Assembly: GCA_031362865.1 (NCBI GenBank)
Contig: JANLTH010000033.1
Location: forward strand, 11,811 to 75,810
Direction: 5' to 3'
DNA from: Burkholderiales bacterium
Lineage (GTDB): Bacteria > Pseudomonadota > Gammaproteobacteria > Burkholderiales > JAEUOS01
DNA length: 64,000 nt
Numbering within the stretch: position 1 is the first letter of the stretch; each line of letters starts with the position of its first letter. The translations under genes were made by a program, and so were the position numbers. Below, in pieces: positions 20,106-31,365 of the stretch. The notes under the pieces were generated by a model. The model had not been told where the DNA came from. It was given only the letters and a program-made list of their open reading frames with translations, and ran no database searches.

Positions 20106-21183
20106 GGCAGGGACGAGTGCAGAAAAGGTTCCTGCTTGGCGGAGGACCTTGCTGACCATCGACAGGACCATTGGGGACGCGGTTATAAATTTGGATCGGA
20201 CGAGTGCGCAGATCGTACTAGTGGTTAAAGATGGGTTATTGCATGGATCTGTGACCGATGGCGATATCCGGCGAGCCTTGCTGCGTGGGATGGACTTTAA
20301 CAGCCCCGTTACCTCGGTTATGAATCCGAGCCCAATGGTGGTCACGCCAGAAGTTGGTCGGGAATTGGTTCTTGACCTGATGCGCGCGAACAAGATTCAC
20401 CAGCTACCCGTGGTCGATGTAGCGCGCAGGGTGGTCGGGCTTTACATTTGGGACGATATCGTAACGCCGCCCAAACGATCCAACTCCATCGTCATCATGG
20501 CGGGTGGATTTGGGAAACGACTGCGTCCTTATACCGACGAATGCCCCAAGCCGATGCTGCCGCTGGCTGGCAAGCCTATGCTTGAGCACATAATTGCGCG
20601 TGCAGCTGCTGAGGGCTTCAAAGACTTTATTGTGTCCGTGCACTATCTCGGCCATGTCATCAAGGATTACTTTGGTGACGGCACCAAGTTCAACGTTCGG
20701 ATTTCCTACATAGATGAAGATACCCCTCTCGGTACCGCCGGAGCCATCTCATTGATTGATCCGACTCCAACCGAGGGGTTGGTGGTGACAAACGGGGATC
20801 TGCTCACCGACATACGCTATGGCGAACTTTTGGATTTTCACAAATTGCATGGCGCGACTGCTACCATGGCGGTCAGGCTACACGAGTGGCAGCACCCATT
20901 TGGCGTAGTCAAAACCGAGGGCATCAAAATCGTCGCCTTCGAAGAGAAGCCAGTGCATCGGTCGTACGTCAATGCAGGCATATATGTCCTTGAGCCCACG
21001 GCTCTGCGCATGCTTCCCCGGGGCGAGGCTTGTGACATGCCCGCGCTGTTTGACCAACTGCGCTTAGGAAGTTACTCGACAGTTGCATATCCGATGCACG
21101 AGCCGTGGCTGGATGTCGGTCGACCGGATGATCTGAATACAGCGAAATCAATGTTTGAGAGAGGCTTGCATGACCCAAAATAA
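20092..21183 (+). CDS. Sugar-phosphate nucleotidyltransferase with N-terminal CBS pair (PtmE-like)
   Basis: A CBS-like N-terminal region (GSVTDGDIRRALL, HQLPVVD) is followed by an NTP-transferase core (IVIMAGGFGKRLRPYTDECPKPMLPLAGKPMLEHI). Confidence 0.75.
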   Translation: MLLTEAGTSAEKVPAWRRTLLTIDRTIGDAVINLDRTSAQIVLVVKDGLLHGSVTDGDIRRALLRGMDFNSPVTSVMNPSPMVVTPEVGRELVLDLMRANKIHQLPVVDVARRVVGLYIWDDIVTPPKRSNSIVIMAGGFGKRLRPYTDECPKPMLPLAGKPMLEHIIARAAAEGFKDFIVSVHYLGHVIKDYFGDGTKFNVRISYIDEDTPLGTAGAISLIDPTPTEGLVVTNGDLLTDIRYGELLDFHKLHGATATMAVRLHEWQHPFGVVKTEGIKIVAFEEKPVHRSYVNAGIYVLEPTALRMLPRGEACDMPALFDQLRLGSYSTVAYPMHEPWLDVGRPDDLNTAKSMFERGLHDPK

Positions 21184-22357
21184 TCTGATTCGGTGCAAAC
21201 GCTGCTTGCTTCCCGAAACCTACGAAACCATTGAATTTGACACCGTGGGTATTTGTAACATTTGCCGTGGCGCAGAGCACAAACAGCACGCGATCGACTG
21301 GGATGAACGCAAGCTATTGCTGGATCGCCTTATCGAGAAACATCGTGGAAAACATGAGTACGACTGCATCATCCCGTTTTCTGGTGGTAAAGACAGTACG
21401 TTCCAGCTTTGGTATCTCGTCACTCAGTACAAACTCAAGCCGCTTGTGGTTCGTTTCAATCACGGATTCATGCGCCAGACGATTCAGGAAAACAATCAAC
21501 GCACGTTCAAGAAGCTGGGTGTCGATGTTCTGGAGTTTTCCCCGAATTGGAAGGTGGTCAAGCGATTGATGCTCGAATCATTCACGCGCAAGAGTGATTT
21601 TTGCTGGCACTGCCACACCGGTATCTATTCGTATCCGCTGCGCATCGCGCTGCGTTATCGGGTGCCTCTTGTTTTTTGGGGTGAGCCCCAGTCGGAAATT
21701 ACGGCGTACTACGACTATTTGAACGACGAAATTGAATACGAGGACGACAAGAAATTCAACATGCTACGAACCTTGGGAATTACTGCGGAGGACATGCATG
21801 GCATGATTAATTCCGCAGAAAATCCGATCGACCGGCGTGACCTGATTCCTTACACGTTCCCCGATGTAAAGGAGTTGCGTGCGCTTGCCTATTGCTCAGT
21901 GCCTTTAGGCAGCTTCATCCCATGGGACTACACGCGCAACACGGAAATCATCAAGGCAGAATTGGGCTGGCGAACCGACGAGCTTGAAGGGGTCCCGGGG
22001 CATATCAATGAACACGGCGAGAAAATCGAGTGCTTCATGCAGGGCACGAGGGACTACATTAAGTTTTTGAAGCGTGGCTATAGTCGGGTCGCACAGATAA
22101 ACGCATTTCACGTTCGCAATGGACGGATGACATCTGAGGAGGCGCTGAAGCTGGATACGGAGTATGACGGCCGTCGCCCGCCGTCGCTTGACGTGTTCTT
22201 GGAGTACATGGGGCTCTCAGAGGACGAGTTCAACAAACTTGTGCTTCCGACCACGATACCGCCCTATGAACACGATTTTTCTGTCAGTCGCAAAGCGGAA
22301 AAGCCTTGGGATTTTATTCACTGGTACCGCGAAGACAATTCGAGGAAGCCAAGATGA
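21170..22357 (+). CDS. N-acetyl sugar amidotransferase (PP-loop ATP pyrophosphatase; PseA/WbpG family), copy 1
   Basis: An N-terminal Cys cluster CKRCLLPETY..GICNIC is followed by the PP-loop FSGGKDST. HisH and HisF paralogues follow directly. Confidence 0.75.
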   Translation: MTQNNLIRCKRCLLPETYETIEFDTVGICNICRGAEHKQHAIDWDERKLLLDRLIEKHRGKHEYDCIIPFSGGKDSTFQLWYLVTQYKLKPLVVRFNHGFMRQTIQENNQRTFKKLGVDVLEFSPNWKVVKRLMLESFTRKSDFCWHCHTGIYSYPLRIALRYRVPLVFWGEPQSEITAYYDYLNDEIEYEDDKKFNMLRTLGITAEDMHGMINSAENPIDRRDLIPYTFPDVKELRALAYCSVPLGSFIPWDYTRNTEIIKAELGWRTDELEGVPGHINEHGEKIECFMQGTRDYIKFLKRGYSRVAQINAFHVRNGRMTSEEALKLDTEYDGRRPPSLDVFLEYMGLSEDEFNKLVLPTTIPPYEHDFSVSRKAEKPWDFIHWYREDNSRKPR

Positions 22358-29513: not shown

Positions 29514-30278
29514 TTGCTGAGAACCCGAGTCATTCCTGCGTTATTGCTGAGAGAAGGAGGTCTGGTAAAGACCCAGAAGTTTGCCGACGCAACCTACATC
29601 GGCGACCCAATCAATGCTGTGCGAATATTTAATGAGAAAGAAGTTGATGAACTCGTCTTGCTCGATATTGACGCAAGCCGCCAGGGACGTGAACCTGACT
29701 ACAATCTGATCAAGGATGTCGTCAGCGAGGCGTTCATGCCGATCGGCTACGGCGGCGGTGTCACCACAGTGGAGCAGGCACAGCGCTTGGTCAGCTTAGG
29801 AGTAGAGAAAGTCGTGATCAACTCCGCCTCACTGGGGGGGTACGATTTGATCGAAGGTGTCGCAGAGCGCCTTGGTGCTTCGAGCACCGTTCTTTCGGTG
29901 GACGTAAAGAAAGACTTCCTTGGCCGACACCGTGTGTTTAATGCCGCGACCGGCAAAACTTTGAAGTTAGATTTGGTTTCGCACCTCTCGAACGCAGTGA
30001 AGGCAGGCGCGGGGGAGATTTTTCTGAACAGCGTTGACCACGACGGCATGGGCCAAGGCCTAGATTTGGTTCTGATTTCCAAGGCGGCCGAAGCGGTTAA
30101 CGTACCTATTGTGGCGTGTGGAGGTGCTGCTACCTTGCAGCACCTGCGAGGCGCGGTGAATGCTGGCGCGTCCGCCGTGGCCGCCGGGAGTATGTTTGTT
30201 TTTATGGGGAGACACCGTGCTGTCATGATCAACTATCCTTCTCCCGACGAATTGCGTGAGGTGTTCGGAAATGCCTAA
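29514..30278 (+). CDS. hisF: Cyclase subunit, HisF-like, copy 2
   Basis: Matches are LRTRVIPALLLREGGLVKT, DELVLLDI, YGGGV, GVEKVVINS and GAGEIFLNSVDHDG. Confidence 0.85.
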   Translation: MLRTRVIPALLLREGGLVKTQKFADATYIGDPINAVRIFNEKEVDELVLLDIDASRQGREPDYNLIKDVVSEAFMPIGYGGGVTTVEQAQRLVSLGVEKVVINSASLGGYDLIEGVAERLGASSTVLSVDVKKDFLGRHRVFNAATGKTLKLDLVSHLSNAVKAGAGEIFLNSVDHDGMGQGLDLVLISKAAEAVNVPIVACGGAATLQHLRGAVNAGASAVAAGSMFVFMGRHRAVMINYPSPDELREVFGNA

Positions 30279-31365
30279 CTACATGATTTGCAAGCGTTGC
30301 ATCATGGATACGACTGATCCGGATATCACTTTTGGACCTGATGGCATCTGCAACCATTGCGAGCGTCATGAGGCGATTGCACGCAAAAGACTATTTCCGA
30401 CAGCTGAGCGAGCGACGCGTTTGGCTGAATCGGTCGCGCGCATCAAAAAGGAAGGCGAGAATCGTGACTATGACTGCGTGATCGGCGTATCGGGCGGGGT
30501 CGATAGCACGTACGTGGCTTATCTGACCCGTCAGTTGGGACTGCGTCCGCTCGCGATCCATTTTGACAACGGTTGGAACTCGGAACTGGCCGTCTCGAAC
30601 ATAGAGAAAACGCTTCGCTCCCTTGGGATTGACCTTCAAACCTACGTCGTGGACTGGCCGGAGTTTCGCGATTTGCAATTGGCCTTCCTTCGCGCCTCGA
30701 CCCCTGATGGCGAAGTTCCCACCGATCACGCAATCGTGGCACTTTTGTACCGCACAGCGATACGTCTCAACATCAAGACGATCCTGCTCGGTGTCAATGC
30801 CATGTCAGAGAGCATCATGCCGCTCAAGTGGGGCTACGGATACTCGGATTTGAGATACATCAAAGCCGTCCATCGGCAGTATGGCACGCGCGCGTTGAAG
30901 AGCTATCCGTGCTACTCGCTCCCGCAGCTCTACTACTACATGAAAATTCGGAAGATCCGCATGATGCCGATTCTCGACTTTATTGACTATCGCAAGGAGG
31001 TAGCGATGGAAACCATTCAGAGCGCGCTGGGCTGGGTTTATTACGGCGGGAAGCACTATGAGTCCATTTACACGCGCTTCTTTCAGGCCTACATACTGCC
31101 AAGAAAATTCGGCATCGATAAGCGCAAAGCCCACAATTCCAATCTAGTGCTTTCCGGGCAGCTTTCTCGGGACGACGCACTGACGGCTATGGACGCTCCC
31201 GTTTGTGACCCCGATATGCTGAAAGACGACCGCACGTACGTAATCAAGAAACTGGGTCTGAAGGAGAGCGAGTTTCAGAGCATCATGGATTCACCGCTAA
31301 AGACTTTTGTGGACTACCCGAATAGTTATTCGGCCATCCAACTGGCGAAGCGGTTCTTAGCCTGA
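30271..31365 (+). CDS. N-acetyl sugar amidotransferase (PP-loop; PseA/WbpG family), copy 2
   Basis: The N-terminal Cys cluster is CKRCIMDTTDPDITFGPDGICNHC and the PP-loop is VSGGVDSTY. Confidence 0.8.
   Translation: MPNYMICKRCIMDTTDPDITFGPDGICNHCERHEAIARKRLFPTAERATRLAESVARIKKEGENRDYDCVIGVSGGVDSTYVAYLTRQLGLRPLAIHFDNGWNSELAVSNIEKTLRSLGIDLQTYVVDWPEFRDLQLAFLRASTPDGEVPTDHAIVALLYRTAIRLNIKTILLGVNAMSESIMPLKWGYGYSDLRYIKAVHRQYGTRALKSYPCYSLPQLYYYMKIRKIRMMPILDFIDYRKEVAMETIQSALGWVYYGGKHYESIYTRFFQAYILPRKFGIDKRKAHNSNLVLSGQLSRDDALTAMDAPVCDPDMLKDDRTYVIKKLGLKESEFQSIMDSPLKTFVDYPNSYSAIQLAKRFLA

Follow-up and report, generated by a model that had tools for sequence, protein, structure and literature searches.

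Within a stretch of 64,000 nucleotides from a Burkholderiales bacterium (GenBank assembly GCA_031362865.1, contig JANLTH010000033.1, positions 11,811 to 75,810; hereafter 'the window') there are two triads of genes, each comprising an N-acetyl sugar amidotransferase (NASAT), a HisH-type glutaminase and a HisF-like barrel protein. Weak matches in the flank and the closest relatives also indicate Burkholderiales. The locus is a real case, correctly described when its letters were first read, of the known NASAT/HisH/HisF acetamidino system; it is not unique and recurs in other bacteria. The members of triad 1 are here termed X1 (the NASAT), H1 and F1, and those of triad 2 H2, F2 and X2. Judged from their sequences, the two triads most likely act on two different sugars, in each of which an N-acetyl group would become a positively charged acetamidino group.

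Two triads of separate descent

All six open reading frames (ORFs) are on the plus strand at the positions where the sequence-only reading had put them, and in the orders it gave, X-H-F for triad 1 and H-F-X for triad 2 (Table 1). The curated hidden Markov models (HMMs) relevant to them have cutoffs of 203.2 bits (TIGR03573, WbuX), 105.4 bits (TIGR01855, HisH), 310 bits (NF038364, AglZ/HisF2), 299.7 bits (TIGR03572, WbuZ) and 294.6 bits (TIGR00735, hisF). X1 and X2 exceed the first, covering positions 4-343 and 3-344, respectively, of its 344, and H1 and H2 are both above the second. The catalytic motifs that had been noted as common to the paralogues are present: a PP-loop in each NASAT (SGGKDS at residue 71 of X1, SGGVDS at residue 74 of X2), GICLGMQ at residue 77, together with HPE at residue 183, in H1 and H2 alike, and DELIFLDI and DELVLLDI as the HisF motif of F1 and F2. 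Each NASAT also has a CxxC-x16-CxxC Cys4 set, C9/C12/C29/C32 in X1 and C7/C10/C27/C30 in X2. The six genes are intact, with no internal stops, lengths like those of their orthologues, and start and stop codons that overlap or abut, the start of H1 overlapping the stop codon of X1 by 4 nt. A promoter and terminator scan of 20-40 kb gave no intergenic terminator-like site, and promoter-like sites no more than in shuffled controls; the absence of internal terminator-like sites is compatible with one long operon and says nothing of expression.

Pairwise identities put figures on the divergence that had been judged by eye: 30% for X1 and X2, with a BLAST alignment that covers the N-terminal 174 aa only, 42% for H1 and H2, and 36% for F1 and F2. 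The last figure is also that for F1 and the housekeeping HisF of E. coli, so that F2 is no nearer to F1. More than 100 homologues of X1 are 72-83% identical to it, and it belongs to a 247-member cluster at 90% identity; homologues of X2 reach 70%. Since each NASAT is thus much closer to orthologues in other taxa (83% for X1, 70% for X2) than to its paralogue, the pair is not the product of a recent duplication, as had been held. The 90%-identity database cluster of X1 also lists several proteins of 234-270 aa named 'SDR family oxidoreductase', which looks like a clustering artefact. When E. coli genomes were searched at the DNA level with triad 1, nothing matched.

To place the triads we surveyed 80 X2-like loci in species-representative genomes and 80 X1-like loci in metagenomes (numbered with the prefix L below), annotating them by tblastn with the window's proteins; context-labelled NASATs, WbuX of E. 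coli O118 and O145, and the structure with PDB code 8WEX served as references for the NASATs. Flanks were viewed over 10 kb, a span that may hide genes (the window's own Wbp-like genes are 26 kb from X2). X1-like NASATs adjoin an F1-type HisF in 71 cases out of 71, and X2-like NASATs an F2-type HisF in 65 out of 65. All 62 complete X1-type triads have the order X-H-F, and 47 of 55 X2-like triads the order H-F-X. As each lineage keeps its own order, the differing gene orders are lineage signatures. Two ancient, independent modules would in turn imply two separate amidinations, and in this the survey supports the initial proposal.

The barrels bear on what the HisH and HisF pairs do. F2 passes the AglZ/HisF2 cutoff, while F1 is below every curated NCBIfam cutoff (WbuZ 280.4 bits, AglZ/HisF2 250.8, hisF 257); F1 is a HisF-fold protein, and its lineage, a separate one, is found with X1-type NASATs in every case. 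In F1, F2 and HisF2 of E. coli O118, to which F2 is 46% identical, Leu stands in place of the cyclase Asp11, and Asp130 is retained together with the ammonia-gate residues R5, E46, K99 and E167. With Leu for Asp11, F1 and F2 are not imidazole glycerol phosphate synthase cyclases. The idea that the pairs are spare histidine-biosynthesis genes was rejected on that residue and on hisF HMM scores that for both barrels are below the cutoff. Every glycan-associated HisF examined, the window's two and that at 11914-12702 of L001, has Leu for Asp11 and keeps Asp130 and the four gate residues.

WbpG and HisF2 have been found by co-immunoprecipitation to interact, and HisH2 and HisF2 were proposed as ammonia suppliers to WbpG (PMC11445079); the residue pattern of the window's barrels fits that ammonia-delivery model. 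A NASAT crystal structure contains a PP-loop and a Zn-Cys4 site (PMC10607449). In the scheme proposed here for each triad, HisH would hydrolyse glutamine, the ammonia would pass through a HisF-like barrel that has no cyclase Asp11 but has the channel gate, and the PP-loop, Zn-Cys4 NASAT would use ATP to activate the carbonyl of a sugar N-acetyl group, yielding an acetamidino group. What the sequences show directly is the identity of the genes, their intact motifs, their co-inheritance and their linkage; what the enzymes do, on which acceptors and in which physical complexes, we infer for both triads.

The cluster around the triads

G+C content is 0.50-0.57 over 1-41.5 kb as against 0.61 in the flank, and is uniform across the modules of the cluster (Table 1). 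A 387-aa ORF without a family match (40351-41514, plus strand) ends the low-G+C cluster, past 42 kb G+C content climbs from about 0.54 to about 0.61, and the whole window has no tRNA genes. The gene for Wzx is between those for the 531-aa unknown protein and LegB. Nonulosonic acid (NulO) genes, here of the legionaminic acid (Leg) type, surround X1. Two further sets of genes are candidate sources of an acceptor for triad 2: the RmlD-like, FnlA-like and 2-epimerase trio, a candidate 6-deoxy-L-N-acetylhexosamine (6-deoxy-L-HexNAc) pathway, and the WbpB/D/E-like genes, a candidate 3-amino-sugar pathway. The Wzy-like and first GT4 genes directly after X2 are conserved there in loci of the X2 clade (defined below).

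Table 1. Coordinates of the triad genes and of the features around them
Feature	Position	Strand	Description and evidence
X1	21170-22357	+	395 aa PP-loop NASAT, NulO-associated lineage; TIGR03573 WbuX 317.5 bits
H1	22354-22998	+	214 aa HisH-type class I glutaminase, triad 1; TIGR01855 226 bits
F1	22992-23753	+	253 aa HisF-like (beta/alpha)8 barrel, proposed ammonia conduit of triad 1; Pfam His_biosynth 213 bits
H2	28906-29511	+	201 aa HisH-type glutaminase, triad 2; TIGR01855 219 bits
F2	29514-30278	+	254 aa AglZ/HisF2-family barrel, triad 2; NF038364 337.1 bits
X2	30271-31365	+	364 aa NASAT, WbpG/WbuX-like lineage; TIGR03573 291.8 bits
WbpB-like GFO/IDH/MocA oxidoreductase (cut by window start), WbpD-like acetyltransferase, WbpE-like DegT aminotransferase, WbqC	3-3292	+	family matches
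WbqC; minus-strand block (beta-helix protein, three methyltransferases, ThiO-like FAD oxidase, GT2); WecE-like aminotransferase; 531-aa unknown protein	2513-13406		
Legionaminic genes LegB, LegC, NeuC/LegG, NeuB/LegI, NeuD/LegH, CBS-NTP-transferase (PtmE-like)	15002-21183	+	internal starts approximate; LegB to NeuD: TIGR04180 519, TIGR04181 528, TIGR03568 460, TIGR03569 442, TIGR03570 205 bits
CysE-like acetyltransferase, CMP-NulO synthetase, class III aminotransferase (PRK06209 type), PtmA-like short-chain dehydrogenase/reductase (SDR)	23750-27439	+	family matches
unk478	27465-28901	+	478 aa, GT-B fold, directly upstream of HisH-HisF-X2
Wzy-like membrane protein, GT4a, GT4b (WcaI/WbuB-like)	31375-35219	+	family matches
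RmlD-like reductase (start uncertain), FnlA/WbvB-like dehydratase, WecB/WbvD-like 2-epimerase	35248-38419	+	TIGR01214 86, TIGR04130 558, TIGR00236 232 bits
SDR (WbpV-like), small polyprenyl-phosphate glycosyl-1-phosphate transferase (PGT, initiating enzyme)	38532-40198	+	family matches

The layout is illuminated by Herminiimonas L175, in which WbpA-B-D-E, Wzx, unk, H, F, Wzy, X2 (62% identical to that of the window), GT4, FnlABC and a further GT4 are contiguous. Because of that arrangement the window looks like a backbone of the L175 type with a Leg and X1 module located between Wzx and unk478. Beside WbpA-E, L175 also has WbqC, a GT2, two methyltransferases and a 479-aa protein that is 33% identical to the window's 531-aa protein, and from these sequences the block of WbqC, minus-strand genes and WecE-like aminotransferase seems to belong to L175's cluster type.

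The protein encoded directly upstream of triad 2, unk478, has no Pfam or NCBIfam match, and its 414 homologues are all named hypothetical. It is kept directly upstream of HisH-HisF-X2 in many loci, including those of Rhizobium, Chitinimonas arctica, Herminiimonas and Bradyrhizobium. An AlphaFold2 model (mean predicted local distance difference test score 92.9) has a GT-B fold with generic matches only in the PDB (UDP-GlcNAc 2-epimerases, UDP-glycosyltransferases and TagF), on which grounds unk478 may be a glycosyltransferase. It was also considered as a NulO transferase, with the hypothetical gene that precedes wbuX in E. coli O145 as its homologue; this was abandoned, there being no significant similarity between the two and the fold being generic GT-B.

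Candidate sugars for amidination

That one of the amidinations is tied to the nonulosonic acid, as had been proposed, is supported. X1 is encoded between a PtmE-like gene and the CMP-transferase, i.e. inside the Leg/NulO block, and 19 of the 20 well-flanked X1-type loci (those with flanks of 6 kb or more on either side) have it in such a block, with NeuB in 19 of the 20, the CMP-transferase in 16 and Fnl or Wbp genes in none. The closest orthologue of X1, in a metagenome-assembled genome of Moraxellaceae (L004), has the same block of Leg and accessory genes and a single triad, and the acetyltransferase, aminotransferase and SDR set accompanies an X1-type triad and CMP-transferase there and in many metagenome loci. 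C. jejuni PtmG (Cj1324) and L. pneumophila ORF28 (LpNASAT, 8WEX) are NulO 5-N-amidotransferases, and X1 is likewise within a Leg pathway; X1 and LpNASAT share the Cys4 site and PP-loop. X1 differs from PtmG and ORF28 in having a dedicated HisH/HisF pair and the conserved acetyltransferase, aminotransferase and SDR genes. Alignment of X1 to 8WEX is full-length at 79.6 bits, whereas that of X2 takes in the N-terminus only, at 28 bits. Even so, the relationship of X1 to the Legionella enzyme is a distant one, and this counts against the assignment. ORF28 is a homologue of PtmG, which converts CMP-Leg5Ac7Ac to CMP-Leg5Am7Ac (PMC3766260). Triad 1, as part of a mobile Leg module, would turn CMP-Leg5Ac7Ac into a Leg5Am7Ac-type acetamidino derivative, with N5 or N7, by analogy, as the amidinated position; that it acts on the nonulosonic acid is highly probable. 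The NulO module with its own triad does shift position relative to the backbone, as L003, L170, L174 and L176 illustrate.

Which sugar, then, would triad 2 modify? It is situated in a hexosamine backbone (WbpB/D/E, Wzx, unk478, H-F-X2, Wzy, GT4, the 6-deoxy-L-HexNAc genes and PGT), and there it would amidinate a second sugar. The sequence-only reading had named the 2,3-diamino-uronic acid specified by the genes at 1-2526 and did not consider the window's 6-deoxy-L-HexNAc genes at 35.2-38.4 kb. We took as the X2 clade NASATs at least 58% identical to X2 with adequate downstream flank (n = 17), and as outgroup those of 45-58% identity (n = 49). A set consisting of an FnlA-like protein, a 2-epimerase and an RmlD-like or FnlB reductase is present in 13/17 X2-clade loci and 0/49 outgroup loci. 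It is 3.9-7 kb downstream of X2 in the window, and all six nearest relatives of X2 are followed by such genes of Fnl type at 2.6-4.7 kb, with WbpB-like genes absent from the 10 kb around them. The inner clade of eight members has bootstrap support of 79/100.

A parallel is offered by the wbuX-wbuY-wbuZ set of E. coli O145 (also of O118/O151), three genes of the same families as the window's triads. In O145 and O118/O151 complete clusters have the triad directly beside fnlABC, with no Wbp genes, and the O145 cluster (NulO genes, wzx, wzy, a hypothetical gene, the triad, fnlABC and GT4) parallels the window around triad 2. WbuX of O145 and X2 are 39% identical over their full length. There are also differences: the E. 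coli order is X-H-F rather than H-F-X, E. coli uses FnlB where the window has an RmlD-like reductase, and O145 has a single triad, its NulO (Neu5Ac) not being amidinated, as against two in the window. According to the papers that cite King 2008 for it (PMC11637443, PMC10607449), wbuX is needed for L-FucNAm and the amidino group of O145 is on L-FucN. WbvB/R/D make UDP-L-QuiNAc (PMC6765297), and the known O-units in which a diamino-uronic acid occurs together with L-FucN have their amidino group on the latter, as in P. shigelloides O51 (PMC3210612). The acceptor towards which we lean, with due reserve, is accordingly sought in the N-2 of a 6-deoxy-L-HexNAc of the L-QuiNAc (N-acetyl-L-quinovosamine) or L-RhaNAc (N-acetyl-L-rhamnosamine) type.

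Several observations weigh against that choice. The 16-member clade has bootstrap support of only 49/100, and, measured from X2, its relatives are spread along a continuous gradient of distance in which no long branch marks a functional switch. The nearest outgroup NASATs are WbpG-like and in Wbp-only contexts (C. arctica, 46%; the Massilia plasmid, viewed over 38 kb, 54%; L018, 58%), as are those of many loci of Bacteroidota type. L014, L017, L018 and L176, all of the X2 clade, show no Fnl set within 10 kb, and WbuX, the verified L-FucNAm enzyme, is farther from X2 than are Wbp-adjacent NASATs. The linkage of the clade to Fnl-type genes could reflect inheritance of whole clusters and not the specificity of the enzyme. 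At first the linkage had seemed to point without ambiguity to 6-deoxy-L-HexNAc for triad 2; L171, L174, L176 and the Massilia plasmid weakened this view, and confidence in it was lowered. Where L014 (13177-18349) and L017 (12324-17279) are concerned, Fnl genes are replaced by those for GFO/IDH/MocA, an alcohol dehydrogenase-GFO fusion (~790 aa) and a heparinase II/III-like protein, which could, speculatively, be a pathway for a different 2-acetamido sugar. These two loci, like L176, are accounted for by neither the 6-deoxy-L-HexNAc nor the diamino sugar.

The 2,3-diamino-uronic acid of the sequence-only reading has to be taken seriously as acceptor, ranking only a little behind the 6-deoxy-L-HexNAc. 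Triad 2 would then be of WbpG type, converting the 3-N-acetyl of a 2,3-diacetamido-2,3-dideoxy(uronic) sugar, the product of the genes at 3-2526, to acetamidino and leaving the 6-deoxy-L-HexNAc N-acetylated. The known system here is hisH2-hisF2-wbpG of P. aeruginosa O5 (ManNAc3NAmA), which like triad 2 has a barrel of the AglZ/HisF2 family, F2 itself reaching the cutoff of that family. The O5 order is wbpA-E, wzy, wzx, hisH2, hisF2, wbpG, so that H-F-X there follows wbpB/D/E and wzx as it does in triad 2. The synteny of WbpB/D/E, Wzx, (unk), H, F and NASAT persists in X2-clade loci (L013, L015, L070, L170, L171, L175), and together with the H-F-X order it is found in L170, L171, L174 and L175 and in Wbp-only outgroup loci, the Massilia plasmid among them. 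The Wbp-like genes do belong to the window's cluster type, since in L175, L170 and L171 they form one unbroken run with Wzx, unk, H, F and X2, and in L101 a WbpE-like gene (64% identical) is directly upstream of LegB. WbpG-like NASATs, defined by context only, are 46-58% identical to X2, and no long branch separates the X2 clade from them. Set against this, the window has, beyond what O5 has, a second triad and genes for Leg and for 6-deoxy-L-HexNAc, O5 is without the Fnl-type genes that are exclusive to the X2 clade in the survey, and the Wbp trio is seen in only 7/17 X2-clade loci, Bradyrhizobium L176 lacking it with its left boundary in view. In the window itself the Wbp-like genes lie 26 kb from X2, on the far side of the minus-strand block, and WbpA and WbpI are not seen. 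What stands of the original proposal is that the Wbp-like genes are part of the cluster type and that outgroup NASATs are beside Wbp genes; that the diamino-uronic acid is the target is not established, and it is possible though on balance unlikely.

Could the nonulosonic acid instead be the substrate of both triads, say with N5 for X1 and N7 for X2 to give a 5,7-di-acetamidino Leg, or could X2 act as the NulO amidotransferase where the X1-type gene is missing? NulO genes do accompany X2-clade NASATs in 13/17 loci, unk478-H-F-X2 comes immediately after the CMP-transferase in L003 and L033, and in Bradyrhizobium sp. NP1 (L176), which has two triads, one of the X2 clade, neither the Fnl nor the Wbp pathway is in view and NulO genes, apart from two GFO/IDH/MocA genes, are the sole special-sugar pathway. 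Yet X2-clade triads occur with no NulO genes in view (Flavobacterium L013, Herminiimonas L175), the wider family of X2 is WbpG/WbuX-like and acts on hexosamines, and we know of no report of a 5,7-di-acetamidino NulO; a second site on the NulO is quite improbable. Some other sugar as acceptor for triad 2 we rate as unlikely, though less so than the NulO. Mosaic O-antigen clusters sometimes carry dead genes, and one triad might be a redundant or inactive remnant of cluster assembly, with a single amidino group being made; the uniform G+C content gives no pointer either way. That all six ORFs are full length compared with orthologues, with catalytic motifs kept and start and stop codons overlapping or abutting, that no terminator-like site intervenes between the triads, and that at least 15 other genomes have double-triad loci, arguing for selection, make this very unlikely indeed. 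Returning to 6-deoxy-L-HexNAc as the second acceptor, the overall reading of 1-41.5 kb, to which we subscribe tentatively, is of a single Wzx/Wzy-type polysaccharide locus with two non-interchangeable glutamine-dependent acetamidino-forming modules, triad 1 for Leg and triad 2 for a second sugar.

Recurrence and meaning

At least 15 other loci have two complete triads, counted as two or more each of NASAT, HisF and HisH: L003, L010, L011, L014, L016, L035, L053, L058, L070, L092, L095, L101, L170, L174 and L176. Among them are Noviherbaspirillum (L003), Rubrivivax rivuli (L010), a metagenome (L101), Rhizobium (L170), C. arctica (L174) and Bradyrhizobium sp. NP1 (L176), which like the window have a NulO-associated triad and a backbone triad resembling H-F-X2 in one locus. 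L101 and L010 resemble the window further in having X1-like together with X2-type genes. Unlike the window, most of these loci draw the NulO triad from a third NASAT lineage, of order X-F-H and 26-30% identical to X1, which occurs within NulO blocks in L003, L011, L014, L016, L053, L070, L092, L095, L170, L174 and L176. Where the NulO module sits with respect to the backbone varies from one double-triad locus to another.

Tandem X2-like NASATs, 44-54% identical to X2, often use one HisH/HisF pair, which suggests that two amidinations can proceed via one ammonia relay and, since the tandem genes share it, that a separate HisH/HisF pair is needed only when the NASATs are distantly related. Six loci (L020, L032, L041, L042, L049, L061) have, at about 8.4-11 kb of each, two tandem X2-like NASATs and one HisH-HisF pair, usually directly beside WbpB/D/E-like genes.

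Taken further, each NASAT lineage would need its own co-evolved HisH/HisF relay, without cross-talk, and the O-unit would bear two cationic acetamidino groups, one on Leg and one on a 6-deoxyhexosamine of L-QuiN or L-RhaN type; this composite we put forward as rather doubtful. If true, the lineage-specific need would explain why whole triads are present where two distant NASATs share a locus. No report of an acetamidino form of an L-QuiN- or L-RhaN-type 6-deoxyhexosamine was found in the literature searched. A specialist would find the two triads unsurprising, and no long-standing question is opened by them. The survey does provide practical rules for cluster annotation and the prediction of glycan structure: NASAT, HisH and HisF come as matched triads, their order is lineage-specific and the NulO-linked triad moves with the NulO module. 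Because close tandem NASATs share one HisH/HisF pair and distant ones bring their own, the surveyed loci also offer a natural setting in which to test how specific the partners are when ammonia is channelled. For the organisms, acetamidino groups add positive charge to acidic surface glycans and alter serospecificity, adhesion and cation binding, as has been argued for P. aeruginosa O12 (PMC11637443).

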